Shown here piece by piece: positions 30,901 through 63,990 of a DNA stretch of 64,000 bases. How positions within the stretch are numbered: position 1 is the first letter of the stretch; every line of letters starts with the position of its first letter. The notes beneath the pieces are model-generated. The model did no database searches and was not told where the DNA came from. It was given only the letters and a program-made list of their open reading frames with translations. The position numbers and the translations under genes are program-made. This DNA is from Eubacteriales bacterium (GTDB lineage Bacteria; Bacillota; Clostridia; Oscillospirales; CAG-272), in NCBI GenBank assembly GCA_045643945.1, contig JAZRGA010000066.1, forward strand, positions 677 through 64,676. Reading direction: 5' to 3'.

Positions 30901-30973
30901 CGCTAACAAGCAAAAGAATTATCATTGTAATTACAAGCTTTATTCCTTTTCTACGTTTTGAAGCTCTCATCAT
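27923..30973 (-). CDS. Lipoprotein with collagen-like Gly-X-Y repeats, DUF11/CARDB-like repeats and an NlpC/P60-like papain-fold domain
   Basis: Lipobox [18 protein letters not shown] repeats bracketed by TPYIG(D/E)NGNWW(I/V)GD motifs. [17 protein letters not shown] and [17 protein letters not shown] repeat domains. Candidate catalytic Cys in GYTNCAAF and His in [18 protein letters not shown]. Confidence 0.85.
30422..30859 (-). repeat. Tandem 36-nt (12-codon) collagen-like coding repeats
   Basis: Near-identical units of ...GGATGCCCTGCTCACCTTGTTCACCCTTTTCACCTT... are visible on the plus strand. They encode aa 39-51 and 75-184 of the 1016-aa protein. Confidence 0.9.
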
Positions 30974-36952: not shown

Positions 36953-36986
36953 ATTTGACCTCCGAGCTTAAAATTTAATGCCGTAT

Positions 36987-42941: not shown

Positions 42942-42977
42942 AATCACAACCTCCCGGGTTATCTGTGTTAATTTTAT

Positions 42978-45900
42978 TTACGCGGCAACAATAATAATTT
43001 TAAAGTAATCTCTGTTTTGGTTAACTACATAAAGCGTGTAAAGACCCGCTTCAAGCGCCCCAATACTCAACGACTTATCTAAGGTATAGTCACAAAGCGT
43101 CAAAGCGCCGTTTTTCATTTGGGCTACGGTGTTGTCACCGCTCTTTAATATTGCCTTATAATACAAGCCTTGGCAATCCACCGAAAGTAAAAGTTCCTTG
43201 CCTGCCGTAACCACTATACCCTCATCCCTCGAAAGCCTCTTATCACCGTATTCAACGAAAGGCTCGTAGAAGGAAACTATGCGAAGCTTACCCTCGACCA
43301 CCGTACTGTTTCCCGCCTCGTCTGTTGCCATATACTCGACGGTGCTAAGTCCGATTTCGTCTGTATTCTCGGTAAACCTTACCGAAAGCGTTAACTCTGT
43401 CGACTCTGCATCGAATGCGGCAAAGTTATTCATAAGCTCGTTTTCAATTGCTTCCCTATCGGTTTTCTCTCTTATCGATATGATTTTTTTATCTACGATA
43501 ATTTCAGGTCCTACCGTATCGGGAATATTTATTTTTGAAAATTGATGCGTTAATACGTTTCCGTATTCATCTGTCATCACGATATACGGCTGTATTCCTC
43601 CGTATATTTCGGGAACGGTAATCTCATTCCACTCATTTGCCGAAAGCTCAAGGCTTATTCCGCCCGATAGCTCTGCGCTCACACGTCTGTTAGGCTTAAC
43701 AAATATACTGTCGCCTATCCCGATTTGAAGCGATGCTACGTCGTCGATAAAATCAGTACCGTCAGGTGAAAGACTGTATTTTACCGAAAGCTCCTCGGTG
43801 ACTATTTCTGTAATTTCAAAGGTAATACCGCTTGAAAGTCCCGTCATATCAACAAATTCAAGTGAATACTCACGGTTTTCGGTATAGGTTGCGGTGTAGT
43901 AATATTTACCGTAACGCTCCTCGGTTGCATATCCGCCAACCTTGGTTATGACTCTTTCATTTGACTCCACCGTAATTTCAACGCTTCTGCCGTTCTTAGC
44001 AAGCCTGCGACTCACTATTTGAAGCTCGGGAGCATTCTTGTCTATAACGCTTACCGCTCCAAGCTTAACAGTAGCAGAGCTTCCGTTCTCGGCAACACCC
44101 TCAAGAATAATCTCGGAATGATTATCGGAATAAGTAACAGTTACGACGTTACCCGTAACAGCGAAGCTAACCGCCGTTTCATCGTATATGCTTTGAACGA
44201 AGATATTCTTAACGTCCTCGGTAAAGTATATTACCGCCGTTACGTCCTTGTTGGTAGCCTCAAAGGCGTTATTAGCCGACCACTCGACTCCGTCACCCTT
44301 AAGCGCCATTTCCTTAATAAATATCTCGCTTACCGAAATATCAACGCTTGATATTATCTCCTCACCGTTATAAATAAGCTTATACATTACCGAGTATTCA
44401 TCGTTGCTTGAATATTCAACGTAAGGCTTACCGTAGTATGCACTGCCTATATCCGACTCTATCTTAACAATCTCTGTGCCCAAGAACTCATAATGCTCTG
44501 CCACCTCGGGCATCAATATATATGCTTTAACAGAATCGTTTCCGATAGGAACCTTTACAACCCTCGGCGAGGGAGCTGCTCCTACGTTATCGACCTTAAA
44601 GGCTATCGACGTTGAATTATTGCTTGCATCTACAACGAAAAGCGAAAATTCAGCCTTTTCACTTACAGTAAGCAATCGGGAATTAACCGTTACACCGTCT
44701 ATTACGTCGCTTACTCCCGTTTCGTAATCGGGTGCTTCGGCGTAAAGTCCTCTCTTAATAAAGATACGCACTCTGCTCATATCCACCGTTTCGATAATAA
44801 AGCGGTAAGATGTGCTCCATCCGAGAGAGTCAAGCGCCTTAGTCATATCCGCTCGATTTCCGAGATATTCAAAGACTCTATATCCCGAATAATTGTTAAG
44901 CGCATTAGAGTTTCTTGCGTTCTCTACCCTTACAGAAAGCTTTTCATCGGAATAAACACCGTTCAGGTTGGAAAATGCCAATATTTGAACGTTTGGCGTT
45001 TCAAGGTCCTCGCCCTTTTCTTCGAACAAGGTAGGCGGCTCGTAAAGCTTAATATCAAGGCTTACGGCTATATCGCTATCAAGTCCTATCGATTCGTTTC
45101 CGAGTAATGCCGCTATATCCTCCTTTTTGAAGATATAAGTGCTATCGCCTCCGGGAACAAAGGTAAAGCTTGGCATTTTGCCTGTGTATTTATCCGTAAG
45201 AGCAAAATTGTTATCGGTCAGATAAACTGTTACACTTCCGTATCTGTATTTTTCACCGTTCTCGTCTACGTTGTATTCCTCGGTATCATAGCTCCAAGCA
45301 AGATACGGCGCAGGCTCAAGAATATTATCGACAGTGATATAATGCATCACTTCATATCCCTCGGAGTCGATATATCTGTAAGAAAATCTTGTGTTTTTAT
45401 TAACCGTTACAGATACACTCGAGGTATTGTTTGACTCAACGCTCATTATTGCGTAATCGTTAATATCGACGAATATCGGTCGTCCGTCGCTTCGGCTGAG
45501 TAAAACGGTTACGGGCATTGAGGTATCCTTTACCGTCGAAAGGCTTATCCGAGTTGTAGGGTCTTTCGACTCTGTAATCGAATAATCAAGCCTTATATTC
45601 TTACCGTAGGCATCACGGACCAATATCCGGTAATTACCGTTTTCAAAAATTCCCATTTCAATAGTTGACGTGTAATCAAAATTTCTGAATGAAAGCGAAA
45701 GCACCGCTCCGTTTTCCGTCATATTAACCGATTTCACAATATAATCGGTATAATAAAGCTCAACCGTACCCGTACTTGAATATTTATCACCGAATATATT
45801 ATAGCATTCAATGGTAAAGGAACGAACAGCTCTTGTTCCTGCGGGATTTTCTGCCGTTGCTCTCGGATTTGCCACGCTAAAGCTAAAGCCACGCTCACCT

Positions 45901-48900
45901 ATATATGCTCCGCAATATCCTATACTGTTTTCCTCACCTTGAAGCTTAACCGTGTAGGCGTTGTTTCCGAGGTCGCCTCCGCTAAAGGTTATCGTTGCGT
46001 CCTCCCAACGGATAAGCTCGAAATTATTTCCGTCCTCATAGTCAACCGTTGCCGAGGTCGAATACTGTGAATAGTTTTGCGACGTACCTCCCCAATATAT
46101 ATCATTAGTAACTATATTGAAAAGATTGTACTTAAGCTCGGTATTAGAAATCATCAAGGTTTCGGAAAGCGAATCTCCGTCCTCGGTGTTTTCGTATAAA
46201 TAATTTTCAAAGGACAAAAGATTTTTACCGAAATACTTTGGTTGATTGTAAGCAATTCTCCAAGATAGGAAGGAATCACCGACTACATACGGATCGTCGA
46301 AATAATTTCCGTAATAATCGATATTATATACATACTCGTACGCTTCTCCGCCCCAAACCTCATATCTTTTATGATCGCCTATCTGCGGAGCAACTATTGT
46401 AACTCCTCCGTACTCGTCGGTTGCAACGAATACCGCAGTGCAAAGCTCGTGATATTTCGGGAAGTCCGAGGTATAGCTGTTTTGCGTAAGGTCTGCAAAA
46501 TCCTCGACACGCAAGCCCGATTTTATAACCTCAAGTCGGTCCGCATTAGGATAATACATTCTCTCGGTAAGCGTATTGCCGTCATACTGTCCTACGTTAA
46601 TTCCGTAATTTGACCAGATGTCGACCCTCACGTTTCCGCTACCGTTCATCGAGTATGCGCTTTCGACGAAAAATCTTATACTGTGAGCATTTATCATTCC
46701 GTCCTGCTGCGAAACCTTATGCGACGGACGGTAATCGTCTATCGCAATATTAAGCTCGGGAGAATAATCGGTTACTATTATAGTAAACTGTCTAATCGGA
46801 GAAACGTATCCGTTTGAAAGCTTTACCTGATAGCATATCGTATTTACGCCCTTGACAAGGTAAAGGTCCTTAAAGCCGTCAATTCCCTTTGGAATATTTT
46901 GCGCATCATAAATATCGTCAGTACCCGTAAGGTAAATCAAGCAATCTTCATAATTTTTTATAAAGCCTTGATCGTTTATTTCCTTTGCGGTAGGCTCGCT
47001 AAGCATATTCCAGAACTTAAAGCCCTCAAGCGTGCCAACCTTTATTCCCTCGTAGACCTTTTCGCTATCGGGAAGCCTAAGACTCATACTAAATCCGCTT
47101 ACACCGTAGGAATAGAGTGCAAATACGTTGCTTCGCATTTTCTCTCCGCCAACGGTAACCGAAATTCCTACGCTTGAGTATGGCTTATCCTCTGCCTCAT
47201 GCTTTACCCAAGAATAACCCTTTTCCTCATCTACCGCAGTTATATCCGCCTTGGTTTGATAAGAATAAGACCAAAGACCTGCATTATCGGCTACCGTTGC
47301 ATCAAGCACAAGCCTTGAGGATTCATAAACGTCAATAGCTCCGCTATTGCTTATAACAGTAACCTTAAGGTAATAAGCGCCCGTTTTATAGTATTCGCCC
47401 GAATCTGTAAGATTTCCTACCGTAAAGAACTGTGAATTGCTTGCAAACAGTCCGCTTTGTCTTGCGACGGTTATCTGCTCGTTTCCGCTCTCTCCCGTCC
47501 ATATAAGCTCGGCATAGGAGCTTGCAAAATCAAAATCGAGCAAACCGAAATCGGCTCTGCGCATATTTGTAATCGAATAATGTATCTGCGTCTTACGCAT
47601 AGGGCTTACACCCTTGCTCGTCGCATTAAATTTATACGGGGCGCTACCCTTATCGGCATTTGCTACAACCACCGCGCCGTCCTTATCAACTATCTCACCA
47701 AAATCAACACTGTAAACGGTTTTCTCGGTATCATAAGGAGAAGCGTATCTGACAACGTAGTATGTAGAATCCTTAGAATAGCTGCCTATATCTGCCGCCT
47801 CATAAAAATACTGCGACGCTCTCGGAGTCATATCTCTGTATCCGTTTTCAAAGGATACACGAAGCTCTCCGTAATATTTAAATAGCTCGTAAAGAACGCT
47901 TTCGGAATTAAGCGTATATCCCTCGTTCACAAGCTCGGGAGCGGACACCTCGATATACTTGTCTACTCCAAGCCTTACACGGTACCAGCTTAATCCCTCA
48001 AAGCCAAGCACGTTAAAGGCTTCACCGCTTTTCACCACGGTAACGTAGGAATAATCCGAGCCGTCGGGAGTAAGAGTTACTCGGGTATAGCCGTCAACCC
48101 CTGCATGCGACACCCTTGGACCTGTAACGGTAATTTTATGATTTGTGCTTACCTTATTTAAATCGCCCTCATATTTAACTTCCGTCATAGGCTTCTCAAG
48201 GCTTACGCTAATACTCTTTGATATAGGCTCACTTTCGTTTCCGTATTCGTCGAACGCCTTTACCCAAACGGTATCGTTATAAACCTTGTCAAATTCCTCT
48301 CCGTTACCGCCGTAATGAAGACTTATCTTCTCGGTTATATCCTCGCCCGACGTAAATTCAAGCACCTGCCACTCAGCATTCTCAACGCTTGCGCCCACAC
48401 AATAAAGAATTCTCGTTATCTTACTGTCATCAAGCGCATTTATCGACAAATCAACGTCGATTTTCGTGTTATTATCAACGGCTTTCATTTCCTGAGATAT
48501 AAATTTAACCGTTGGAGCAGCTCCGTCGATAAAATAATCTATCACTCTCGGCGCTTCTGTATCGGTACTGTTTCCTACCGTATCACAAGCATTAACGCTT
48601 AGATAAAGGTCGTCGATATAAATATTTTCTCCGTTTATATACAGATGCAAATATTTATCTGTAGCCTTGTTGGCAATAGAATACACGCCAACAGGCACAG
48701 ACTGATTTTCGCAAAGCTCGAATGCTCCCGTATATCCGCTCTTAGACTCGGGAGGCGTTGCAGAATCGGAAAGCAGATATTTAACGCTTGCCTTTCCTAC
48801 TATTCCACCGCCTAAGCTTAGAGCCACCTTAGTTCCGAGCATTCCCGCAACCGTCTTATAATTTTCTACGTCGCAGGCCGAAACCAAAAGGCTTATATAA

Positions 48901-50816
48901 TGCTCGACACTACCGTTATCAAGCACCTCATCCCGCTTTGCAAAGCTTGATGCCTTAACGGTGGGAGCGCTTAAATCCGCATAAAGTATATTCGAAGGTA
49001 AAACTACGTTCGGATATGCCGTTTTGTCGGATATTTCATCACTCATTCGAGTTATAATAATTCTCGGCTCGACCTCATCTCCCTCGGGAACGTCAAGCTT
49101 TACGCAATCCTTAAGAGGTATATCCTCAAAAATCAATACCCAGCCGCGTCGGTCAACTCCGTAAACATCCTTTTTTTCATACTCGGATATATCCGTCGCT
49201 CTTGCGCTTAGAGGAGAGCCGTCCGACCTTAAAATATTAAACTCTATCTCAACCTGCCTTGCCTCGTCCTCGGTAAGCTCCTCGTTTATATAAACGTAAG
49301 CCGTCATCGAACCAAGGGGACCGACAAGCATATCGTTTAGACTCGTTTTATTTATCTCCTCTTTATCCTCTCGCACCTCAACCACGTTGGTATTATAGAT
49401 TTCAACCTCCACCGCCTCAAAGGTGTTACTGATAAAGCTTTGATTTCCAAATGACCAGTTGGTTATACTCGATACGTTTATTCCGTTACCCGCATAATCA
49501 CAGATAGCCGTTGTGTTTTTTCCGCATCTCCAATAATTAAATGATGACATCGAAATAATTCTGTTATTATAATCGACTGTATCGTAAGCGCTTACATACA
49601 TTTCATCCGCAAGGTCAATAGCTCCGTGAGTCAAATATCTCCACTTATTATCAAAGCTCGCCCTTAATATTCGGTTAACTCTGAAATTTTTATAATTATA
49701 AAGACCGATATCTCCACGGAATATCCATTTTTCGCCCTCTCGCTTTTGCAAATAAAGTCGAACGGTATCTCTTTTGTTATTGGAAAGATCAAGAAGCTCA
49801 AGCTCTATCCAAATATTATCAAGGTCCTTGCTTACGTCATCACTTGCAAACCTCAGGCTTTCGTTAAAGGATACCTCAAGCAAGAGATCCGCCGTATTAT
49901 CTGCCCTCACCTCTCGCTTAAGCTCTATATGCTTAACCGATGGAGCGGTATCGTCGATAAGCGTAATATGGAAATCCGTCATTACGTTATTTACCAAGCT
50001 CGAATTGTTGTCGGCATTGAAATAAATTATCGTCCACGTATCCAAATCGCTAAGCGGAAACTTTACCGTTAGCCTTTGCGGCTCTCCGTCAGTAACTCGT
50101 CCGCTTGCAGTTGCCGAATTACTTCCGTCGCCCGACACGCTTATCGAGCCTCTACCCGATAAAAGCGTTGCTCCGACCTGAACGTATATTTGATCGGCTC
50201 TAAGTCCCAACGAATTACTTAAATATCCCGAAAGGATATCCTTAAATTCGCCGTTTCCGTCCGTATCCTGCCAATCGTCCAAAAGCCTTGTGCTTATTCC
50301 TCCGTTTGTTACAGTAAGCTCGGAATGAAGCATTTGTGAGCCCTCGGCAAGAATTCCCGATCGCCCCTCTCTAAAGGGTAAATCGTTTTTAACGGTCATA
50401 TCATCATTGTGGTCTATCCATACCGTATAGTCAAACCACGGCGCTATTGAAGCTGTGTAATATGGACTTTGATTTTCAAGCTTATAATTATGAGTGCCGT
50501 ACGCTCCAAAGAAATCTGCGCTTAAGCTTTCGTAATTATCCGAGTTATATATCGGATAGGTGTCAACCGATATATCCACGTCGTACGGATTTTTGCTAAC
50601 CGTCGGAATTTTAATATCATCAAGTGACGTCGGGGGCTTCACCTCGTTTTCCCGAAGCTCACCGCTCTCGCCACCACTGTCCGCAAAAATCTCTGCAGCA
50701 GAGCTTACAGGCATTATCGACATATTAAATAGCATCGTCAGCGCAAGCGTCGATGATAAAAATATCTTGAAAAATCCTTTCAACCGATTTTCGCGGCTTT
50801 TTTTCATACTTATCAT
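42978..50816 (-). CDS. Giant secreted/surface protein, 2612 aa, with no recognisable C-terminal anchor
   Basis: Signal peptide FKIFLSSTLALTMLFNMSIMPVSSAAE. Repeated D-x-x-A/G-P-x-V/I/L domain-start motifs (DDTAPSVK, DLSAPTVK, DGAAPTVK, DKNAPELQ, DTVGPEII). Ends ...YFKIIIVAA with no TM helix plus basic tail. ACGGAGG SD. Confidence 0.9.
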   Translation of the reverse strand: MISMKKSRENRLKGFFKIFLSSTLALTMLFNMSIMPVSSAAEIFADSGGESGELRENEVKPPTSLDDIKIPTVSKNPYDVDISVDTYPIYNSDNYESLSADFFGAYGTHNYKLENQSPYYTASIAPWFDYTVWIDHNDDMTVKNDLPFREGRSGILAEGSQMLHSELTVTNGGISTRLLDDWQDTDGNGEFKDILSGYLSNSLGLRADQIYVQVGATLLSGRGSISVSGDGSNSATASGRVTDGEPQRLTVKFPLSDLDTWTIIYFNADNNSSLVNNVMTDFHITLIDDTAPSVKHIELKREVRADNTADLLLEVSFNESLRFASDDVSKDLDNIWIELELLDLSNNKRDTVRLYLQKREGEKWIFRGDIGLYNYKNFRVNRILRASFDNKWRYLTHGAIDLADEMYVSAYDTVDYNNRIISMSSFNYWRCGKNTTAICDYAGNGINVSSITNWSFGNQSFISNTFEAVEVEIYNTNVVEVREDKEEINKTSLNDMLVGPLGSMTAYVYINEELTEDEARQVEIEFNILRSDGSPLSARATDISEYEKKDVYGVDRRGWVLIFEDIPLKDCVKLDVPEGDEVEPRIIITRMSDEISDKTAYPNVVLPSNILYADLSAPTVKASSFAKRDEVLDNGSVEHYISLLVSACDVENYKTVAGMLGTKVALSLGGGIVGKASVKYLLSDSATPPESKSGYTGAFELCENQSVPVGVYSIANKATDKYLHLYINGENIYIDDLYLSVNACDTVGNSTDTEAPRVIDYFIDGAAPTVKFISQEMKAVDNNTKIDVDLSINALDDSKITRILYCVGASVENAEWQVLEFTSGEDITEKISLHYGGNGEEFDKVYNDTVWVKAFDEYGNESEPISKSISVSLEKPMTEVKYEGDLNKVSTNHKITVTGPRVSHAGVDGYTRVTLTPDGSDYSYVTVVKSGEAFNVLGFEGLSWYRVRLGVDKYIEVSAPELVNEGYTLNSESVLYELFKYYGELRVSFENGYRDMTPRASQYFYEAADIGSYSKDSTYYVVRYASPYDTEKTVYSVDFGEIVDKDGAVVVANADKGSAPYKFNATSKGVSPMRKTQIHYSITNMRRADFGLLDFDFASSYAELIWTGESGNEQITVARQSGLFASNSQFFTVGNLTDSGEYYKTGAYYLKVTVISNSGAIDVYESSRLVLDATVADNAGLWSYSYQTKADITAVDEEKGYSWVKHEAEDKPYSSVGISVTVGGEKMRSNVFALYSYGVSGFSMSLRLPDSEKVYEGIKVGTLEGFKFWNMLSEPTAKEINDQGFIKNYEDCLIYLTGTDDIYDAQNIPKGIDGFKDLYLVKGVNTICYQVKLSNGYVSPIRQFTIIVTDYSPELNIAIDDYRPSHKVSQQDGMINAHSIRFFVESAYSMNGSGNVRVDIWSNYGINVGQYDGNTLTERMYYPNADRLEVIKSGLRVEDFADLTQNSYTSDFPKYHELCTAVFVATDEYGGVTIVAPQIGDHKRYEVWGGEAYEYVYNIDYYGNYFDDPYVVGDSFLSWRIAYNQPKYFGKNLLSFENYLYENTEDGDSLSETLMISNTELKYNLFNIVTNDIYWGGTSQNYSQYSTSATVDYEDGNNFELIRWEDATITFSGGDLGNNAYTVKLQGEENSIGYCGAYIGERGFSFSVANPRATAENPAGTRAVRSFTIECYNIFGDKYSSTGTVELYYTDYIVKSVNMTENGAVLSLSFRNFDYTSTIEMGIFENGNYRILVRDAYGKNIRLDYSITESKDPTTRISLSTVKDTSMPVTVLLSRSDGRPIFVDINDYAIMSVESNNTSSVSVTVNKNTRFSYRYIDSEGYEVMHYITVDNILEPAPYLAWSYDTEEYNVDENGEKYRYGSVTVYLTDNNFALTDKYTGKMPSFTFVPGGDSTYIFKKEDIAALLGNESIGLDSDIAVSLDIKLYEPPTLFEEKGEDLETPNVQILAFSNLNGVYSDEKLSVRVENARNSNALNNYSGYRVFEYLGNRADMTKALDSLGWSTSYRFIIETVDMSRVRIFIKRGLYAEAPDYETGVSDVIDGVTVNSRLLTVSEKAEFSLFVVDASNNSTSIAFKVDNVGAAPSPRVVKVPIGNDSVKAYILMPEVAEHYEFLGTEIVKIESDIGSAYYGKPYVEYSSNDEYSVMYKLIYNGEEIISSVDISVSEIFIKEMALKGDGVEWSANNAFEATNKDVTAVIYFTEDVKNIFVQSIYDETAVSFAVTGNVVTVTYSDNHSEIILEGVAENGSSATVKLGAVSVIDKNAPELQIVSRRLAKNGRSVEITVESNERVITKVGGYATEERYGKYYYTATYTENREYSLEFVDMTGLSSGITFEITEIVTEELSVKYSLSPDGTDFIDDVASLQIGIGDSIFVKPNRRVSAELSGGISLELSANEWNEITVPEIYGGIQPYIVMTDEYGNVLTHQFSKINIPDTVGPEIIVDKKIISIREKTDREAIENELMNNFAAFDAESTELTLSVRFTENTDEIGLSTVEYMATDEAGNSTVVEGKLRIVSFYEPFVEYGDKRLSRDEGIVVTAGKELLLSVDCQGLYYKAILKSGDNTVAQMKNGALTLCDYTLDKSLSIGALEAGLYTLYVVNQNRDYFKIIIVAA

Positions 50817-57349: not shown

Positions 57350-57964
57350 TTATTTATTTTTTGAAATAACCTTTTTCTGCCAGCTTCTCTTATTACATTC
57401 AGGACATTTCAAATATCTCGTTCTACCCATATGCATAGCCATAAATACACTGCTATATTTTGGAACGTAGCGATTTCCGCATTTCTCGCACTCGTAATAC
57501 CCTGCCATCTGCTCTATTCTTATCATAAACGGAACAAGCACCAAACAGGGGATAAATCCGATAATAATAAGCACTATCCTAAGCCAATCGTCAATTGGCG
57601 CATAAGCAGCAAGCACGCAAAGACCAAGCATTAACGATATGCTTACAATACCCATAACAATTTCAATTTTAAGCAAGCGTCTGTCCGCAATTTCCTTTTC
57701 CTTTACTATTTCAAGCAAATGCTTTTCCATTTCTTCATTGTATTTTTCCATAATTAAAACCTCTCCACAAAGTAAATCGTTTACCGTTATATCCAATATC
57801 TCACACAATTCGAGCATAATGGACGAATCGGGCAAGGAGCGTCCGTTCTCCCATTTCGATACCGCCCTGTCGGTTATATTAAGCTTTTCCGCCAATTGCG
57901 CTTGCGTGAGATTTTTTATTTTTCTGCGCTCGGCGATAAATCTTCCGATTTTTATCTGGTCCAT
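57350..57964 (-). CDS. XRE-family HTH regulator fused to TM helices and a C-terminal CxxC...CxxC zinc ribbon
   Basis: HTH IGRFIAERRKIKNLTQAQLAEKLNITDRAVSKWENG, two hydrophobic helices, then CEKCGNRY...CPECNKR. The ATG at 57964 follows AGGTGG; the track start at 57976 is a GTG. Confidence 0.85.
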   Translation of the reverse strand: MDQIKIGRFIAERRKIKNLTQAQLAEKLNITDRAVSKWENGRSLPDSSIMLELCEILDITVNDLLCGEVLIMEKYNEEMEKHLLEIVKEKEIADRRLLKIEIVMGIVSISLMLGLCVLAAYAPIDDWLRIVLIIIGFIPCLVLVPFMIRIEQMAGYYECEKCGNRYVPKYSSVFMAMHMGRTRYLKCPECNKRSWQKKVISKNK

Positions 57965-58020
57965 ATTCTCACCCACCTTTCACAATAAATATACAGCAAT
58001 TTATCAAAAAATGCAACACA

Positions 58021-58052
58021 CCGTTGGTTGAGTGAAGATTTCAACCGTCGGT
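58021..58052. promoter_or_regulatory. Imperfect inverted repeat in the divergent XRE/deaminase control region (candidate operator)
   Basis: CCGTTGGTTGA-N9-TTCAACCGTCGG. Sits just upstream of a candidate minus-strand promoter (TTGCAT-17-TATATT). Confidence 0.35.
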
Positions 58053-58122
58053 AGAGCGTAATAATTATAATATTTTACTTATTATATCACAAAATATTAG
58101 AAAAGTAAATAGCGAGGCGATA

Positions 58123-58151
58123 TTGAAAATTTTACTAAGCTATGATATAAT
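58123..58151 (+). promoter_or_regulatory. Sigma-A type promoter of the deaminase-like gene
   Basis: TTGAAA (58123..58128), 17 nt, TATAAT (58146..58151). Confidence 0.55.
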
Positions 58152-58191
58152 CTAATCAATGAATAAAAATCTGCGAGGGTGAAATAGCAAA

Positions 58192-58602
58192 ATGAAAAGA
58201 TATGAATTAAACGATGCCGACAAAAATCTGATAACGCTCGGGCTTGAGGTTTTAAAAAGCAACTTCGACGATGGAGTTTACAATCACACCGTTGGATGCG
58301 CAATTCTCTGCAAAAACGGTAATATTTATAAGGGCGTAAATTGCGACGGTATTCACGGCTCTTGCGCAGAGTTTATAACTATCGGAATTGCAATATCGGC
58401 AGGCGAGCGAGAGTTCGACACAATAGTCGCAACCCACGATAAAGCGCTAAACGGAGTTGTTTCGCCCTGCGGAAACTGTCGGCAAATGCTATACGAATAT
58501 TGCCCAGATATTAAGGTAATCGTCAATGACGAAAACGGAAGCTTAATCAAGGTAAAAGCGCGCGACCTCTTACCCTTTGCTTGGGAAGCGGTAAAATGCT
58601 GA
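58192..58602 (+). CDS. Cytidine/blasticidin-S deaminase family zinc enzyme
   Basis: HGSCAE and PCGNCRQ zinc-ligand motifs. 136 aa. Confidence 0.8.
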   Translation: MKRYELNDADKNLITLGLEVLKSNFDDGVYNHTVGCAILCKNGNIYKGVNCDGIHGSCAEFITIGIAISAGEREFDTIVATHDKALNGVVSPCGNCRQMLYEYCPDIKVIVNDENGSLIKVKARDLLPFAWEAVKC

Positions 58603-58612
58603 ATATTTTTAA

Positions 58613-58649
58613 GGGACTATCTCATTTTGATTTGAGGTAGTCCCTTTTT
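58613..58649. terminator. Bidirectional terminator between deaminase-like and GNAT genes
   Basis: GGGACTA.CTC...GAG.TAGTCCC stem followed by T5. Confidence 0.65.
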
Positions 58650-58663
58650 ATATTCATTATAAT

Positions 58664-59110
58664 TTATTTATGCACATACATTCTTGACTCAAACGGCTCT
58701 CCGTCGCCTTGAGCAAGGCAAAAAAATTCCCATCCGTATTTTTCATAAAAACCGATGTGGTCGGTAAGCAAATATACGGGAGAAATGCCCTTTGCTCTCA
58801 AATCCTCGACCGCCATATCAAGCAATCTGCCCGCTATTCCCTTTTTTCGGTGATTTTCCTCTGTAAAAACCGCGCAAATATTAGGCGTCAAGTCGGGTCT
58901 GTTATGAAAATCGTTTTCAATAACTCCTAAGCCGCCAACGATTTTTTCTCCGCACAGGCAAATATACCATCCGTATTCGGTTTCGCCTCCCAAATAAGCG
59001 TCCATGCACTCAAGGTAAGCCTCAATCGGCACGCCCCACTTTTCGCTAAACCAATTTGCCGCAAGATTTTTTAAATCGCTTCTTTCTCTCAACGTAATAT
59101 ATTGATACAT
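58664..59110 (-). CDS. GNAT-family N-acetyltransferase
   Basis: HRKKGIAGRLL acetyl-CoA binding motif (Q/RxxGxG/A type). 148 aa. Confidence 0.8.
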   Translation of the reverse strand: MYQYITLRERSDLKNLAANWFSEKWGVPIEAYLECMDAYLGGETEYGWYICLCGEKIVGGLGVIENDFHNRPDLTPNICAVFTEENHRKKGIAGRLLDMAVEDLRAKGISPVYLLTDHIGFYEKYGWEFFCLAQGDGEPFESRMYVHK

Positions 59111-59132
59111 CGCTTTTCCTTTTACCCGAAAA

Positions 59133-60092
59133 TCATTTAAGTAACGCCTTCTTCACCTTTTCAAAATTCTCCTCAACCGAGTCTGCGCCGTCTAAATAAA
59201 GAATATCACACGAAAGCATTTTTTGCCACTCGTCGTGCTTTGCCTTACTGCGAATATCAAGCCCGCCCGTATCGTATTGCTTTGCCCACTCAACAAATTC
59301 GATGTATTTATTATATCTATCTCCGCCGACGTCAATGCGTGAGCCGTAGCGCTCCATTTCTCTTTGCTTTAGCCTTTCAATGCGAATCGACTGTTCAAGA
59401 ACTATTCTTACCGCCAAAGTAAATTGCGACGTCAATTCATCGCCCCAACCGACAAGCGAGCCCGAAATTACGACGTTTTCGGCTTTATCAATATCGGCTT
59501 GCATAAGCTTAACTCTTTCGCTCGGTGAACGCTTTACCGTAAATTTTTGCTCGGTCGGCATCCAATAATAATCGTCACTGTCAATATGTGTATAGCCTAA
59601 TTCCTCGCATATTTTTCTGCCGAGCGTGGTAGTCCCCGAGCCAGATGCGCCAAAGATGTGAATTATATTCTTTTTTGGCTTTTTCCCTAAAAGAAAATCG
59701 TTTGCCTCTGTTAATATTCTTTTATTATTATCAAATTGAAAAAGCTTTATAGCAGTTTCGTAATCAACCAATAAAGCCTCGGAAAGCTCTGTTTTTTGAT
59801 GAGTAAATCGTTGATTTGAATACTCACCTAAAAAATATACCACCTGCTTTAAGCATTTTTCCTTTCTCGGAAGCGAATATTCGACCACCGTTCTGAAACC
59901 GCGAAGCAGGTCTATTTTTACACCGACCTCCTCAAAAACCTCTCTTAAGGCGGTCTGCTCCTCTGTTTCGCCTGCTTCTACATGTCCCTTAGGAAAGCCG
60001 TAAGTTCCCGTCAAGCTGCGAATTAATAAATATTTTATTTTATTATTAACTCGAGTAAAAACAACCGCGCCACAGGATTTTTCCTTTATCAC
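59133..60092 (-). CDS. Nudix hydrolase fused to a P-loop (adenylate-kinase-like) domain
   Basis: Nudix box GHVEAGETEEQTALREVFEEVGV. C-terminal half has IFGASGSGTTTLG. The apparent start is a GTG, 8 nt after GAGG. Confidence 0.8.
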   Translation of the reverse strand: MIKEKSCGAVVFTRVNNKIKYLLIRSLTGTYGFPKGHVEAGETEEQTALREVFEEVGVKIDLLRGFRTVVEYSLPRKEKCLKQVVYFLGEYSNQRFTHQKTELSEALLVDYETAIKLFQFDNNKRILTEANDFLLGKKPKKNIIHIFGASGSGTTTLGRKICEELGYTHIDSDDYYWMPTEQKFTVKRSPSERVKLMQADIDKAENVVISGSLVGWGDELTSQFTLAVRIVLEQSIRIERLKQREMERYGSRIDVGGDRYNKYIEFVEWAKQYDTGGLDIRSKAKHDEWQKMLSCDILYLDGADSVEENFEKVKKALLK

Positions 60093-60119
60093 AATAAATA
60101 CCTCGCTTAAATTACAGTC

Positions 60120-60599
60120 TTAATCCTCGATTTCGGTGCGAAGCGTAAATACCTCGGGAAGATTGTGAATTTCCTTTTTCAAGAATATCGGATAAAAATA
60201 TTCATCCTTTAATCTATCAAGCGCAAGCCACTCAAAATGATGAGTTCGGTTGCCCTCCATCGAAGAAAATTGCTCGCCACGCGATAATAAGTCGGTGTCG
60301 GATATGTCCACAAGAAAATAAATGCATAGCTCATGATAGCGAAGCTTGTCTACATCCTCTGTAAAAAACGCCTGATTTAACCAAAGAGGACGAATTATTT
60401 TAGGCGTAACACCAAGCTCCTCCCCTACCTCACGAATAACGGCTGCCTCCGCAGTTTCACCCATTCCAACCCTGCCACCGGGTAAGTAATAAAACGGTGA
60501 ACGGTCGTCGCGCATAGCCAGAATTTTGCCGTTATTAATCATCATAGCGCAGACTCTGTAATTAAATTTTCCGTTTTCAACCTTAAATGAAATATCCAT
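60120..60599 (-). CDS. Nudix hydrolase
   Basis: Nudix box GGRVGMGETAEAAVIREVGEELGV. The ATG at 60599 is 5 nt after GGAGG. The track start at 60605 is a GTG inside the SD. Confidence 0.85.
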   Translation of the reverse strand: MDISFKVENGKFNYRVCAMMINNGKILAMRDDRSPFYYLPGGRVGMGETAEAAVIREVGEELGVTPKIIRPLWLNQAFFTEDVDKLRYHELCIYFLVDISDTDLLSRGEQFSSMEGNRTHHFEWLALDRLKDEYFYPIFLKKEIHNLPEVFTLRTEIED

Positions 60600-60702
60600 A
60601 CGCACCTCCGAAAATTAATTTAACAAACTGATTATAGCACAAAAAAACACAAATGTAAATAGAAAAGCAGAGTTTTTGCAAACTAAAACACCCGTAAAAC
60701 AC

Positions 60703-60730
60703 AAAAACCCCTGCCGAAACAGAGGTTTTT
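60703..60730 (-). terminator. Terminator closing cassette A (bidirectional shape)
   Basis: CCCCTG-CCGAAA-CAGAGG (one mismatch) flanked by A5 and T5. Confidence 0.55.
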
Positions 60731-60748
60731 GTATATAAAAAATATCAA

Positions 60749-60854
60749 ATTATCTATTTGAGCTTTAAGAACACTGTCACATATCGTGAGTAAGTGTTGC
60801 ACCAAAATCACACCAACATTCAACGCTGTTCTGGTCGATAAATTGGAATTGGAT
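60749..60854 (-). repeat. 3' cassette module, copy A (one TATCGTG unit plus GCACCAA/ACACCAA repeats)
   Basis: Aligns with 61379..61561: ATTATCT.TTTGAG...ATATCGTGAGTAAGTGTTGCACCAAAATCACACCAACATTCAACGCTGTTCTGGTCGATAAATTGGAAT. Abuts the stop codon at 60855. Confidence 0.8.
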
Positions 60855-61223
60855 TTACTTTTTTCTACTTTTCTTAACGTCTCTTTCTATAATGTATCGC
60901 AGTATATCTGTATCAAAATCTTGAAAAACAAATGGTTTAATCATTGATTTGGCTAATTTGGGATGTTTCGAATAATTTCTTATCGAATAAATTGATAGTG
61001 TTGGATATAAGAATGAGGCAAGAAAACACAATCCGGAAACAATAAACATCATTATTCTTGCGGCATATTCTGTTTTTTCATATAATAAAGCGAACAATAA
61101 AAAGAAAACGAAAAAAATGAAGAATAGTATAGAAGCAAAAGCTAAAGAAAACTTTACATAGTTGATATACTCTTTTTTTATATTCCCATTGAATATATCT
61201 TTTTTCATATCAAACACCTCCAT
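60855..61223 (-). CDS. Small membrane protein, 122 aa (two TM helices)
   Basis: Hydrophobic segments FSLAFASILFFIFFVFFLLFALLY and IMMFIVSGLCFLASFLY. GGAGGTG SD. AT-rich codon usage. Confidence 0.7.
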   Translation of the reverse strand: MEVFDMKKDIFNGNIKKEYINYVKFSLAFASILFFIFFVFFLLFALLYEKTEYAARIMMFIVSGLCFLASFLYPTLSIYSIRNYSKHPKLAKSMIKPFVFQDFDTDILRYIIERDVKKSRKK

Positions 61224-61230
61224 TCATCAA

Positions 61231-61290
61231 ATTCAAGTTTATCTATTAGTTGTATTATACCATAAAAACGGTGAAAAGTAAATAGGACGG
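61231..61290 (-). promoter_or_regulatory. Duplicated 60-bp promoter segment, copy 1 (drives 60855..61223)
   Basis: Identical to 62502..62561. Minus strand reads TTTACT, 17 nt ending in TGG, TATAAT (-10 at 61259..61254). Confidence 0.6.
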
Positions 61291-61318
61291 CTCATTTCTT
61301 TACAAATTGAACACAATA

Positions 61319-61349
61319 CAAAAACAGCACCCACCTGAGTGAGTGCTGT
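61319..61349 (-). terminator. Rho-independent terminator closing cassette B
   Basis: Minus strand reads ACAGCAC-TCACTCAGGTGG-GTGCTGT followed by TTTTTG. Lies downstream of the TATCGTG array. Confidence 0.65.
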
Positions 61350-61378
61350 AATTTTTGAAATAATCGCCGTAAGGCTGT

Positions 61379-61561
61379 GATTATCTCTTCGAGTTTTGAG
61401 AGTACCGTTTTATATCGTGAATATCGTAAAATATCGTGTGATATCGTGCATTTATCGTTTGATATCGTGAATATCGTGAGTATCGTCGCATAAAGTGTTG
61501 CACCAAATTTGCACCAAAATTACACCAGCATTCAACGCTGTTCTGCTCGACAAATTGGAAT
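61379..61561 (-). repeat. 3' cassette module, copy B (eight phased TATCGT units plus TTGCACCAAA repeats)
   Basis: TATCGT starts at 61413, 61422, 61432, 61442, 61453, 61463, 61472 and 61481 (spacing 9-11 bp). Then AAGTGTTGCACCAAATTTGCACCAAAATTACACCAGC. Abuts the stop codon at 61562. Confidence 0.9.
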
Positions 61562-62482
61562 TTACTGAACATTAGAGATAAGTTGTTCACTGCAGTATGG
61601 ATATGTCCAATTGTTTTGCTTTTTAAACTCTAAAACATCTTCCGCATTACATATAAAACCGTTGTATGATTCATTGGAATACATAACCATTACACCTTTT
61701 TCTTTATCATAGTTGCCGTCTTTATCGGTAATAACCCAAAGAGTTATGCTGTAAGAAGTGTATTCATCTGTCTTTTTCCAATCAGGATTATCGTGGTGTT
61801 GATGAACTCCGTATATTTCATGTAATATTTTCCCATCCGCATCCACTTGAAGAATACTATTATATCTGTGCGGAAAAGTATCCGGATTTGCCAAATTTAA
61901 TGTTTTAGAATAGTCATTTAATATTTTGTTACATTCGACCGAACTGAGGGAATATGTGTTCTTTCCCAAAGCTTTATAATCTGTGATTGGATAAGAAATA
62001 CATTTACTTTTATCTATCGGTTTATTCCAATCATTTTCTTCTTTTAACTTATCCTTGTTTTGCAAGTAGAATTCTTCTGTTTTATTCTTTAGATGATCCT
62101 CTTTAAATCCCTCATATAAGTGTTCAGACTCTATAAAGGTCAATTCATAATTCATTTCGGGATAAAAATATACGTTGCTGTCATCACAAGTTTGAGAAAT
62201 GATTAAGCAAAAAACTTGATCGCTATAATCTTCGCAATAAGAAAATAGTGTTCTGCCGTAATCATCCTGTTCCCAAATATAAATAACCGAGTCGTATGCT
62301 CCCTCACCATGATACATATATCCTTCGGCATCAGGAATGCTATAAATTGCGGTGGTATATAGTTCTTTATATTCTCCACGATACGGAAAAGGATTTTCTC
62401 TATTGAACACACATCCGGATAGCCCCAATGAACAAGTAAATAAAATAATGCTACATAACACTAAGGATAATACTTTTTTCAT
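61562..62482 (-). CDS. Hypothetical lipoprotein, 306 aa
   Basis: Signal and lipobox MKKVLSLVLCSIILFTCSLGLSGC. AAGGAGGGA SD. AT-rich codon usage. Confidence 0.8.
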   Translation of the reverse strand: MKKVLSLVLCSIILFTCSLGLSGCVFNRENPFPYRGEYKELYTTAIYSIPDAEGYMYHGEGAYDSVIYIWEQDDYGRTLFSYCEDYSDQVFCLIISQTCDDSNVYFYPEMNYELTFIESEHLYEGFKEDHLKNKTEEFYLQNKDKLKEENDWNKPIDKSKCISYPITDYKALGKNTYSLSSVECNKILNDYSKTLNLANPDTFPHRYNSILQVDADGKILHEIYGVHQHHDNPDWKKTDEYTSYSITLWVITDKDGNYDKEKGVMVMYSNESYNGFICNAEDVLEFKKQNNWTYPYCSEQLISNVQ

Positions 62483-62501
62483 TTAAATCCCTCCTTGTAA
62501 T

Positions 62502-62561
62502 ATTCAAGTTTATCTATTAGTTGTATTATACCATAAAAACGGTGAAAAGTAAATAGGACGG
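62502..62561 (-). promoter_or_regulatory. Duplicated 60-bp promoter segment, copy 2 (drives 61562..62482)
   Basis: 60 of 60 identical to 61231..61290. The -10 TATAAT is at 62530..62525 on the minus strand. Confidence 0.6.
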
Positions 62562-62570
62562 CGGAAGAAA

Positions 62571-62735
62571 ATGAATTGACGGCAAGCCGTCATGAATTGA
62601 AGCCTTGCGGCTTCATGATTTGAAATCTGCGATTTCATGAATTGAATTGCCCTGTTTCTCTAATGCCGCAGGCAATTCATGCACTGTTGTGCAATTCATG
62701 GCGTCAGCCAATTCATGCCCGCAAGGGCAATTCAT
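62571..62735. repeat. Mirror-symmetric mini-hairpin array: 4 x ATGAATTG then 4 x CAATTCAT
   Basis: Forward 8-mers at 62571, 62592, 62615 (ATGATTTG) and 62637. Reverse-complement 8-mers at 62673, 62692, 62709 and 62728. Every spacer is a distinct short hairpin. Confidence 0.85.
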
Positions 62736-62753
62736 TGTTCTCCAAGAGATAAC

Positions 62754-62809
62754 AAAAAAGGCTCTGCAGTTGCAGAACCTTTTTTGCAAGTTTCGACCAA
62801 AGGTCGAAA
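62754..62809 (-). terminator. Terminator region closing cassette C (two hairpins)
   Basis: GGCTCTGCA-GT-TGCAGAACC (one mismatch) flanked by A6 and T6 (62754..62785), plus TTTCGACC-AAA-GGTCGAAA (62791..62809). Confidence 0.6.
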
Positions 62810-62970
62810 TTATCTCTTTGAGTTTTAACAACGCCGTTTGATATCGTGAATATCGTGTAATATCGTGTGATATCGTGCATTTATCGTGTGTTTTCGTGCG
62901 ATATCGTGAATATCGTGAGTATCGTTTGATAAAGTGTTGCACCAAATTTGCACCAACTCACACCAACATA
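62808..62970 (-). repeat. 3' cassette module, copy C (nine phased TATCGT units plus TTGCACCAA repeats)
   Basis: TATCGT (one TTTCGT) starts at 62842, 62851, 62861, 62871, 62882, 62892, 62902, 62911 and 62920. Then AAGTGTTGCACCAAATTTGCACCAACTCACACCAAC. Abuts the stop codon at 62971. Confidence 0.9.
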
Positions 62971-63990
62971 TCAAGTTAACTTGATAGTAATCATAGGTAC
63001 AATGCCACCACAATTAAAGTTCACGATGCCTCTGTCACTAACTGTACCATCGTAGTTTACTTCCCACATCTTGAACCTATCATTTTTAGAAGGCGTTCTT
63101 AAGCTCCATCTGTTTCTCGCACCCTGTAACCACGCATATTGAGAAGCTTCATATTTTCTGTTATCATCAGCCTCATCATATAATACATTAAAACCATATT
63201 GAGCCGATAAGACCTCGTTTAATGACGGCAGACAGATCTTGTCTGTTTCGGTTACTTCACGCACAGCAACAGGCATAAGAATATTTTGTTCTTCTTCCGA
63301 AAATACCGCATTCAAAAATGTAGAGTTTAACCATTTTCTTGCGAAGCAGAAATTATAGTTGTTGGGGTCATATGCTCTCGCAGATTTGCCGTTTATGGTA
63401 GAATAGAAAACACTTCGTTCTGAACTAAAGGGATTGGCGTCAATGATAGAATCACAAATCAAGGTAGCCACTCCATCAGATTCATCTAATATTCTCCATT
63501 TAATAGGTAACCACTTGTACCAATATACATTTCCTTTGGTATGCCCCAAGTTCATTTGATGGCTAAAACAATTGGAAGTGCCATATTCATCAGCCAAATC
63601 GGGCTTGTACTCTCTAAAGTATACGCCGCGGTATCTTTCTCCATCAAGTTCAATGTCTTTGTACCAGCATTTATCCCGATAATACTTTAGTTCATCAAAT
63701 GTATCCCATGTTCGTGTATCAATAGAGTGTTCAGTAGATCCAGCCAATTTATCAAGAGCATTCAGAAGATCGATGTCTTCTACCTCTGCTTGCGGATAGT
63801 AGCCCATTAAAATATGTGTACCCTTCTCGGAGTATGCCCCTGCTTCTGTAACTCTTTTATAAACAAAGTGCTGGGTATTATGAGAAGCCTTGGCATTCAC
63901 ACCTTTATCAAGGCTTTGACTTCCATCATTAAGTTTGATGCTTGGCACAACGCCATTTGTCGTTTTTTCAACAACATAATCATAGAACAT
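62971..63990 (-). CDS. DUF6273-like protein (possibly 5'-incomplete)
   Basis: Pattern IKWRILDESDGVATLI...RKWLNSTFLNAVFSEEEQ...ICLPSLNEV...RWSLRTP...GIVPMITI. The frame stays open from the ATG at 63990 to the window edge, and no SD is visible, so the true start may lie outside the window. Confidence 0.75.
   Translation of the reverse strand: MFYDYVVEKTTNGVVPSIKLNDGSQSLDKGVNAKASHNTQHFVYKRVTEAGAYSEKGTHILMGYYPQAEVEDIDLLNALDKLAGSTEHSIDTRTWDTFDELKYYRDKCWYKDIELDGERYRGVYFREYKPDLADEYGTSNCFSHQMNLGHTKGNVYWYKWLPIKWRILDESDGVATLICDSIIDANPFSSERSVFYSTINGKSARAYDPNNYNFCFARKWLNSTFLNAVFSEEEQNILMPVAVREVTETDKICLPSLNEVLSAQYGFNVLYDEADDNRKYEASQYAWLQGARNRWSLRTPSKNDRFKMWEVNYDGTVSDRGIVNFNCGGIVPMITIKLT

Follow-up and report, generated by a model that had tools for sequence, protein, structure and literature searches.

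Why does one and the same noncoding module stand directly behind the stop codons of three unrelated genes? The question is posed by a 64,000-nt stretch of DNA from an Eubacteriales bacterium (GTDB lineage CAG-272; contig JAZRGA010000066.1, positions 677 to 64,676 of the forward strand), hereafter called the window. A repeat finder, together with the sequence itself, located the module in three copies at 60749–60854 (A), 61379–61561 (B) and 62808–62970 (C), which begin directly after the stops of the minus-strand open reading frames (ORFs) 60855–61223, 61562–62482 and 62971–63990, respectively. These genes, referred to as A, B and C, are mutually unrelated. The copies contain 1, 8 and 9 phased TATCGTG-type units, together with TTGCACCAAA direct repeats. 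The module is probably the attR-type end (the P arm plus the core of an attachment, or att, site) of small cassettes that lack an integrase gene and that accumulated in tandem at the 3' end of the ribosomal protein gene rpsI by tyrosine-integrase recombination.

A sequence-only reading of the window had described the same module behind these genes, the order stop codon, module, terminator on the gene strand, and a helical phasing of the units. All three copies, the order and the phasing (period 9–11 bp) were confirmed. The arrays that it listed were also correct, except that the single unit of copy A starts at 60782 and not at 60781, and that the unit at 62892 of copy C reads TTTCGTG. Only five of the eight TATCGT units of copy B are TATCGTG, and some units of the window read TATCGTA, TATCGTT or TATCGTC. 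The window contains TATCGTG 25 times, where 6.9 ± 2.8 occurrences would be expected; none of 100 shuffles reached this count, and 13 of the occurrences fall inside the three modules. Tandem Repeats Finder reported arrays B (61412–61486) and C (62841–62925) with a period of 9–10, and the end motif TTATCTCTTNGAG was found five times, four of them in the module region, against 0.46 expected. Terminator-like hairpins lie 3' of copies B and C on the gene strand, as detected by scanning; that of copy A was recognized by eye.

A collection with one genome per species was searched with a 21-base module pattern, which was specific (an earlier 15-mer had given mostly chance matches). The pattern was present in at least 119 species-level genomes, where the module, of 160–190 nt, stands behind a different gene each time, often in arrays immediately downstream of rplM-rpsI. 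It is thus by no means confined to the three sites in the window. Except for one short contig binned with Bacteroidales, these genomes are Clostridia metagenome-assembled genomes (MAGs), which are incomplete and are labelled Oscillospiraceae, Eubacteriales or Acutalibacteraceae. They came mostly from ruminant and other gut samples. Neither the full module nor the 21-base pattern matched any viral contig. Local BLAST yielded 155 module copies in 121 loci (loci of all kinds are numbered here with the prefix L), with 0–10 units each, in agreement with the variable unit number proposed from the sequence alone. Of 116 copies checked, 78 sit 0–19 nt past the stop of an ORF on the same strand.

The commonest conserved genes near modules were rpsI (38 of ~120 loci) and rplM (37 loci), and in L040, L112 and L066 the array of cassettes starts at the rpsI stop codon. 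In the 38 loci, rpsI ends in ...CAGTTCTC(C/G/A)AAGAGATAA, and every module copy ends in CTC(N)AAGAGATAA(T) on the gene strand; the outermost part of the module, which reads CTCSAAGAGATAA on the gene strand, equals the last 13 nt of rpsI. Several loci contain a second direct copy of the rpsI end 170–250 nt downstream. A copy of the 3' end of a conserved gene at each boundary of an element is the classical signature of integrase-mediated insertion at that gene. As in an att site, the core is shared with the rpsI 3' end and duplicated at the element boundaries. The copying of the rpsI end by the module, and the arrays at rpsI in relatives, therefore point to site-specific recombination. When 65 canonical copies were aligned, the information content was 1.5 bits for the arms, 1.7 for the array and 1.8 for the core, and dropped to 0.25 right after the core. 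The homology between the window and L141 stops at 62810, which is the outer edge of the core, and the 360-nt block after module C in the window (62463–62822) shares 92% identity with the 360 nt that come right after rpsI in L040. In streptococci, IMESag-rpsI, an element with a tyrosine integrase, integrates at the 3' end of rpsI (PMC5704250).

Upstream of genes A and B, a 61-nt block (61231–61291 and 62502–62562) is 100% identical, and the TTTACT-17-TGGTATAAT sites of these genes are among the three best sigma-70-like sites of the region, the third being that at 60659–60631. The GCCGTCCTATTTAC promoter motif was found in 82 copies across the module loci. Since a repeated promoter block precedes the genes and terminators follow the modules, the region reads as a row of self-contained units, each with a promoter, a gene, a module and a terminator. 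The order core, promoter, gene, module, core recurs in at least 12 loci, and a cassette usually contains one gene, occasionally two or three. Before most cassette promoters, directly upstream of the −35 box, there is an imperfect palindrome, GGCGGTTCAATT-TGTAAAG-AATTGAGCCGTCC (81 copies, e.g., in L112, L136 and L160). This palindrome could be an operator or a second exchange or recombination point. We also noted that several high-identity blocks common to different species start at its right edge.

The cargo is diverse: 110 module-adjacent ORFs represent 77 families, including GNAT acetyltransferases, NUDIX proteins, EamA and chromate transporters, ToxN, PemK/MazF, BglII endonuclease, TraX, GrpB and many DUFs, and XRE-type regulators are the commonest cassette genes (29 copies). 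Near-identical cassettes (96–99.7%) were found in different species beside different neighbours. Cassette B is 96% identical from promoter to terminator in L040, where it has a different upstream neighbour, and gene C with its module is 89% identical in L141. Many MAG contigs stop within a few hundred bases downstream of rpsI (L225, L229, L233, L280, L283 and other rpsI-anchored loci). Such breaks are what repeated cassette modules would cause in assemblies of short reads, so that the lengths of the arrays are probably underestimated.

Loci anchored on rpsI were also collected. In relatives that lack the module (L269, L254, L247, L260, L248 and L290), a PF00589 tyrosine integrase is encoded directly downstream of rpsI. 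Tandem 10–11-bp repeats lie between rpsI and int, and each family has its own set: TTTGGWCAAC (two copies), GTAACTAACA (three), TGATGTCC (two to three) or TTGGTCATT (two to three). L262 is a complete element of 4.7 kb in which the rpsI core is followed by a terminator, two copies of TTGGTCATT, cargo genes, xre and int, and then by three copies of TTGGTCATT, a spacer of ~110 nt with a single CACGATAT, the core CTCAAAGAGATAA and a terminator. L053 has the same layout with three copies of TGATGTCC, and is directly followed by a cassette that bears the window-type module. Three 11-bp arm repeats, a spacer of ~100 nt and an rpsI-like core are thus common to L262, L053 and the module. By this layout the module occupies the position that the integrase-proximal attR arm has in these elements, except that a cargo gene stands where they carry int.

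The direct repeats of the module have the properties of arm-type sites, being three 11-bp repeats that are distinct from the core and lie 127 nt from its end. In module C they read GTTGCACCAAA / TTTGCACCAAC / TCACACCAAC on the plus strand, or TTGGTGTGA, TTGGTGCAA and TTGGTGCAA on the gene strand. The module decamers, TTGCACCAAATTTGCACCAA, adjoin tyrosine integrase genes in the unrelated phage contigs L304 (next to a tRNA end) and L305, which supports their assignment as putative arm-type integrase sites. Furthermore, several arrays contain the 3' remnant of a tyrosine integrase gene (PF00589; ...HGLRHSNASLLINNGYDVKAISEHLGHCNTEITSNIYVHIF...), consisting of its last 55–110 codons on the gene strand. 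In L137, L230, L205, L066, L212 and L165, the remnant sits just upstream of the palindrome and the cassette promoter. The order in L325 is rpsI core, hairpin, terminator, two copies of TTGGTGCAA, a truncated int with an internal stop, palindrome, promoter and cargo. This order and the remnants indicate that the cassette family derives from an rpsI element that encoded an integrase and had TTGGTGCAA repeats in each of its two arms. Decay plus accretion is a known route to tandem elements among streptococcal elements and cis-mobilizable elements (CIMEs) (PMC5704250).

On the gene strand, a cassette comprises the palindrome, a strong promoter, the gene or genes, three 11-bp arm-type sites TTGGTG(C/T)(A/G)A, nine helically phased CACGATA sites, the core, a small hairpin and a terminator. 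Strand exchange would take place in the 13–14-nt core CTCSAAGAGATAA[T], identical to the rpsI end, and would be carried out by a heterobivalent integrase with its N-terminal domain on the arm repeats and its catalytic domains on the core. An accessory protein (an excisionase, another directionality factor or an architectural protein of the host) would coat and bend the phased array of ~90 bp, thereby bringing the arm-bound integrase to the core. The cassettes may still be mobile by means of an integrase supplied in trans. In phage att arms, the lambda Xis sites X1-X1.5-X2, the P2 Cox boxes and the 186 Apl sites lie between arm sites and core. The position of the heptamer array between arms and core, with one unit per helical turn, matches such excisionase-type sites. 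Sites for an accessory protein of this type are our preferred reading of the heptamers, at roughly even odds.

The heptamers and their spacing are strongly conserved. In 69 of 122 copies, exactly 127 nt separate the last arm repeat from the end of the core; another 20 copies have 67 nt between these points and 7 have 58 nt. Module C has the canonical 127 nt and module B has 117 nt, equivalent to the canonical distance minus one unit, while in module A only 47 nt are left. The nine units, u1–u9, carry position-specific variants that are kept across species: GATATCGTGA (u1), ATATCGTGKWA (u2), ATATCGTGTG or AATACGTGTG (u3), ATATCGTRSMTT (u4), TATCGTGTGW (u5), TTTCGTGCG (u6), ATATCGTGA (u7), ATATCGTGAG (u8) and TATCGY (u9). 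Short forms of the array lack whole units, and most of them are deletions between u1–u2 and u7–u8, which are identical (GATATCGTGAATATCGTG). Variation is concentrated in the spacers between units, and the CACGATA cores are nearly invariant. A freely expanding and contracting minisatellite, as suggested by the sequence-only reading, is contradicted by the large class of copies at exactly 127 nt and by the position-specific variants.

The module could also be a fossil att site that has no present function, left by decayed CIMEs and an extinct integrase and surviving only through its youth or through homogenisation by homologous recombination between arrays, in which slippage expanded a single accessory site into the heptamers. 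The presence of only remnants of the cognate integrase in public protein data would fit such a relic, as would the single CACGATAT-like site of the integrase-bearing relatives (L262, L053) versus nine in the module, the identity of u1–u2 and u7–u8 with the resulting deletions, and the visible decay of copy A in the window. However, between 20 genomes the 160-nt noncoding module is 89% identical, compared to 79% for rpsI (57% at third codon positions), more than half of the copies (57%) retain the exact 127-nt geometry in spite of a slippage-prone sequence, and the variation is found in the spacers rather than in the heptamers. The higher identity of the module relative to rpsI argues for present-day constraint, or a very recent spread, rather than for a neutral relic. 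Module identity and rpsI divergence measures correlate (r = 0.41), which fits a partly vertical descent of the module under constraint. A fossil therefore seems to us an unlikely explanation.

Another possibility is that the array serves as a DNA operator or insulator and has nothing to do with recombination. A transcription factor or nucleoid protein would then polymerise on the nine phased sites at each cassette's 3' end and might silence foreign cassettes, block read-through from one cassette to the next or provide a partition-type landing pad, close to what the sequence-only reading had in mind. Phased direct repeats are typical of cooperatively binding winged-helix and ribbon-helix-helix proteins (MetJ, omega of pSM19035, OmpR/PhoB-type), the cassette genes are most often XRE-type regulators, and similar 9-bp ATATCGTGA arrays are intergenic in unrelated phages. 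The resemblance to protein-binding DNA repeats pointed out by the sequence-only reading is supported; the context is that of site-specific recombination and not of partition, replication or RNA binding. On the other hand, the array is found without exception between arm repeats and core, with a fixed spacing, every cassette is already closed by a terminator, and par or rep genes were seen in none of the loci, so that we consider an operator or insulator quite unlikely. A plasmid or phage centromere or origin, which had also been suggested, is not supported, given the lack of par and rep genes in ~120 loci and among the scanned window ORFs, and the presence of several copies per array. Heptad or iteron centromeres, such as the omega sites of pSM19035 and parC/ParR of R1, do resemble the array in having 7–10 short phased repeats, probably coated cooperatively by a small protein. 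Unlike these centromeres, the array is chromosomal, occurs in many copies per cassette array, lies between arm sites and core, and has no partition or replication genes nearby.

The module might instead act at the RNA level, as had been proposed for an RNA ligand: transcribed as a 3' untranslated region, its CACGAUA repeats would be bound by an oligomeric RNA-binding protein, through which the cassette mRNA would be regulated in its stability or translation. The location between stop and terminator, the constant orientation relative to the gene and the high conservation are all compatible with this, but the fixed orientation is equally expected of an att site, and in complete elements it is integrase genes that this layout follows. 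As RNA, the arm-plus-array part folds no better than shuffled sequences (z −1.8 to +0.9), and Rfam returned no module match at gathering score and nothing relevant at E values up to 10. Moreover, arm repeats are also found after terminators and before promoters in L053, L325 and L230, accompanied in L230 by one or two heptamer units, and there they are probably not transcribed. An RNA-level element is thus highly improbable.

Several observations weigh against the att-site reading. Searches with phmmer and with tblastn, using four rpsI-site integrases, and clustering of ORFs revealed no intact cognate integrase within 4 kb on either side of the 121 module loci, and the ORF clusters of ~120 loci included no recombinase family. 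A Pfam scan that covered 25 of the long ORFs in the window did not reveal an integrase either. (There is also no recombinase among the window genes rplA, rplK, nusG and secE, which were read from their translations; ~10 other long ORFs lie outside the scan, and the absence of recombinase, par and rep genes claimed for the whole window therefore holds for the ORFs scanned.) All proteins with at least 60% identity to the integrase remnant, among 5.8 billion word-indexed proteins and 1.84 billion representatives searched exhaustively with phmmer, were fragments of at most 178 aa. No excisionase and no heptamer-binding protein was identified, and neither circular forms, looked for as circularly permuted short contigs representing excised cassettes, nor empty sites were seen. 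We know of no att arm with as many as nine accessory sites. Cassette B has the same hairpin and terminator beyond the core in the window and in L040, which a simple model of crossover at the core does not predict. The ends of high-identity blocks at the core are weak evidence for crossover, because similarity between the modules itself extends the blocks and the ends partly reflect the mere end of this similarity. Finally, the window ends before rpsI, and the linkage to rpsI here rests on relatives; L040, which holds the closest relative of cassette B (96%), has its array at rpsI.

Full-length integrases were only 44–46% identical to the remnant, and the 1.84 billion representative proteins contained no intact close relative of it. 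Either the cognate integrase has escaped sampling (it may be encoded elsewhere in these incomplete genomes), or it has died out, or a distant integrase has taken over its role in trans. Two proteins considered as cognate integrases, P0052 and P0050, were rejected as more distant and located on short unrelated contigs. A 192-aa reverse ORF in L230, at first suspected to be a partner, was also rejected: it runs antisense to the remnant of the integrase gene, and neither a Pfam match nor relatives were found for it. Tandem 9-bp arrays of ATATCGTGA-like words or of NNNCGTGAA, in 6–7 copies, are intergenic in the unrelated IMG/VR phage contigs L316, L309/L318 and L319. In L309/L318, the array lies just after a gene whose product ends in DDDLPF, a C-terminus that we take to be typical of single-stranded DNA-binding (SSB) proteins. 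One DNA-binding protein family may recognise the ATATCGTGA-like word in phased arrays; the phage arrays gave no clue to the heptamer binder.

Among known systems, tandem accretion and CIMEs at the 3' ends of housekeeping genes have been described for ICESt1 and its CIME in Streptococcus thermophilus and for IMESag-rpsI at rpsI in S. agalactiae (PMC5704250, PMC5090054). The cassettes match this pattern, being att-flanked tandem elements that start at rpsI and lack integration and transfer genes, with no int next to any module. As in CIMEs and in the accretion of integrative and conjugative or integrative and mobilizable elements (ICEs and IMEs), the target at the rpsI 3' end is duplicated at the junctions, the integrase is of the tyrosine type, int has been lost and att kept in a tandem arrangement, and an integrase pseudogene remnant is present. 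Unlike CIMEs, units of the window type are minimal, with one promoter and usually one gene, and share one conserved attR module and promoter across more than 100 species instead of being independent wrecks of larger elements; no helper element is known, and the attR arm has a phased array of nine units. The module also resembles lambda-type attP or attR sites in the order of arm sites, direct repeats spaced by about a helical turn, and core, but has nine sites over ~90 bp, compared to 2–7 in phages, and is attached to cargo cassettes rather than to a phage genome.

A likeness to integrons (attC; Vibrio VCR) is found in the mostly single-gene cassettes, each ending in a conserved repeat, in the cargo spectrum (GNAT, NUDIX, toxin–antitoxin, restriction enzymes, DUFs) and in the anchoring at a single position of the chromosome, the distal copy being the most decayed one in the window. 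Unlike integron cassettes, those described here have their own promoter and terminator and a double-stranded arm-plus-core site. No folded inverted repeat of the attC kind was found, as the arm-plus-array part folds no more than expected by chance and an inverted core around the terminator is present in a subset of copies only. There is also no IntI/attI arrangement: no integrase lies near any array, and the cassettes carry a conserved predicted promoter. The module does not correspond to a known structured RNA family either. To our knowledge, genome surveys have not found integrons in Bacillota. A search of the literature for integron-like arrays in Firmicutes found no description of the system, and a search with the repeat words returned chance matches only. 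We would classify the system as CIME-like cassettes that lack an integrase gene and have accreted at rpsI. With its uniform att module, a promoter for each cassette and an integron-like cargo, it amounts to a functional analogue of integrons. It is conceivable, though we lean towards doubting it, that the arrays are a working integron-like gene-capture platform of gut Clostridia, anchored at the rpsI stop, in which single-gene cassettes with their own promoters are inserted, excised and exchanged between species by an integrase acting in trans, and in which a directionality or architectural factor lands on the nine-heptamer array and enables these minimal cassettes to recombine efficiently.

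The features of the region are listed in Table 1.

Table 1. Parts of the cassette array in the window, in order along the gene strand.
Feature	Position	Strand	Basis
Gene C, 339 aa, DUF6273	62971–63990	−	ORF; Pfam PF19789, E = 8e-13
Module C, arm-type direct repeats, 11-bp period	62936–62967	−	Sequence
Module C, canonical nine-unit array, (A/T)(A/T)TCGTG, period 9–11 bp	62841–62925	− (gene strand CACGATA)	Sequence, Tandem Repeats Finder
Module C, core, TTATCTCTTTGAG (gene strand CTCAAAGAGATAA)	62810–62822	−	Copies last 13 nt of rpsI including stop codon
Small hairpin (62789–62811) and intrinsic terminator (62752–62787) after core C	62752–62811	−	Terminator and hairpin scan
Inverted copy of rpsI-like core, CTCCAAGAGATAA on plus strand	62740–62752	+	Repeat finder, motif search
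Array of ~22-nt hairpins with ATGAATTG / CAATTCAT words between	62563–62739	−	Period 22; travels with rpsI-proximal segment
Predicted promoter module of gene B, TTTACT-17-TGGTATAAT at 62553–62525	62502–62562	−	100% identical to 61231–61291
Gene B, 306 aa, lipoprotein-like, without Pfam match	61562–62482	−	ORF, Pfam
Module B: core 61381–61393; eight-unit array 61412–61486; arm repeats 61497–61528; conserved 3' flank of gene 61529–61561	61379–61561	−	Sequence, repeats
Small hairpin and intrinsic terminator (61349–61324) after core B	61324–61380	−	Scan; conserved with cassette B in L040
Predicted promoter module of gene A (61231–61291; −35/−10 at 61282–61254) and degenerate pre-promoter palindrome (61292–61320)	61231–61320	−	Repeats, promoter scan
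Gene A, 122 aa, membrane protein	60855–61223	−	ORF, Pfam scan
Module A, decayed distal copy: core 60750–60762 (one mismatch); unit 60782–60788; arm repeats 60796–60817; 3' flank 60818–60854	60749–60854	−	Sequence, repeats
Terminator after module A (60704–60732, by eye) and cassette-type promoter of next gene (TTTACA-17-TATAAT, 60659–60631)	60631–60736	−	Sequence, promoter scan
NUDIX gene beyond module A	60120–60605	−	Downstream of promoter 60659–60631

The inverted copy of the core forms a long stem with the core around the terminator (z = −6.5), reaching up to 26 bp in relatives. Such an inverted copy of the rpsI 3' end after the terminator was observed in the window (within 62740–62822) and downstream of rpsI in L007, L121, L142, L188 and L216. 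In this arrangement the last ~26 nt of rpsI can pair with the inverted copy as a long stem with one bulged base, and in L216, where the rpsI end is a variant (GCAAGCCAG), the inverted copy has changed in a compensating manner. The adjacent segment at 62563–62739 contains 6–8 short hairpins spaced ~22 nt apart, with a constant word of 7–8 nt between them, here ATGAATTG in the first half and its reverse complement CAATTCAT in the second. Hairpin arrays of this type lie directly 3' of rpsI in L007, L040, L121, L142, L143, L152, L163, L187, L188, L194, L201, L203, L216 and L219, with word pairs that differ by lineage (GTTATGA/TCATAAC, GTGAAAT/ATTTCAC, ATGAAGC/GCTTCAT, TCGATAT/ATATCGA and GTGATAT/ATATCAC). 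Their stems vary from unit to unit with the pairing kept in each, and they have no Rfam match; they could be structured as RNA or as DNA, or could instead offer inverted sites to a protein.

To the left of module A, the gene content at 57350–60605 is cassette-like (NUDIX, NUDIX-AAA kinase-like, GNAT, cytidine deaminase and XRE regulator). Because the XRE gene at 57350–57976 has homologues (~68% identity) in six other module-bearing loci, the array probably extends left to at least 57350 in the form of older cassettes without modules. Elsewhere in the window, three consecutive giant ORFs of 1928, 1986 and 2612 aa (31166–50816, minus strand) have no Pfam match at E = 1e-5. Next to them is the gene for a 1016-aa protein (27923–30973) with collagen triple-helix repeats and an NlpC/P60 domain, which includes a 36-nt tandem repeat at 30450–30751.

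That a noncoding element exceeds the ribosomal protein gene next to it in conservation is noteworthy in itself, and the module raises two biochemical questions, namely what integrase recognises TTGGTGCAA and what protein binds to the nine phased CACGATA sites. In practical terms, repeated modules would account for the assembly breaks just downstream of rpsI, and the module provides a simple sequence tag for mining cassette genes in metagenomes. The arrays occur across more than 100 uncultured gut and rumen species and carry an adaptive small-gene cargo of acetyltransferases, NUDIX enzymes, toxins, restriction enzymes and transporters. If Bacillota indeed lack integrons, these arrays would represent a functional integron analogue that arose from an arm-plus-core att site at a ribosomal protein gene.

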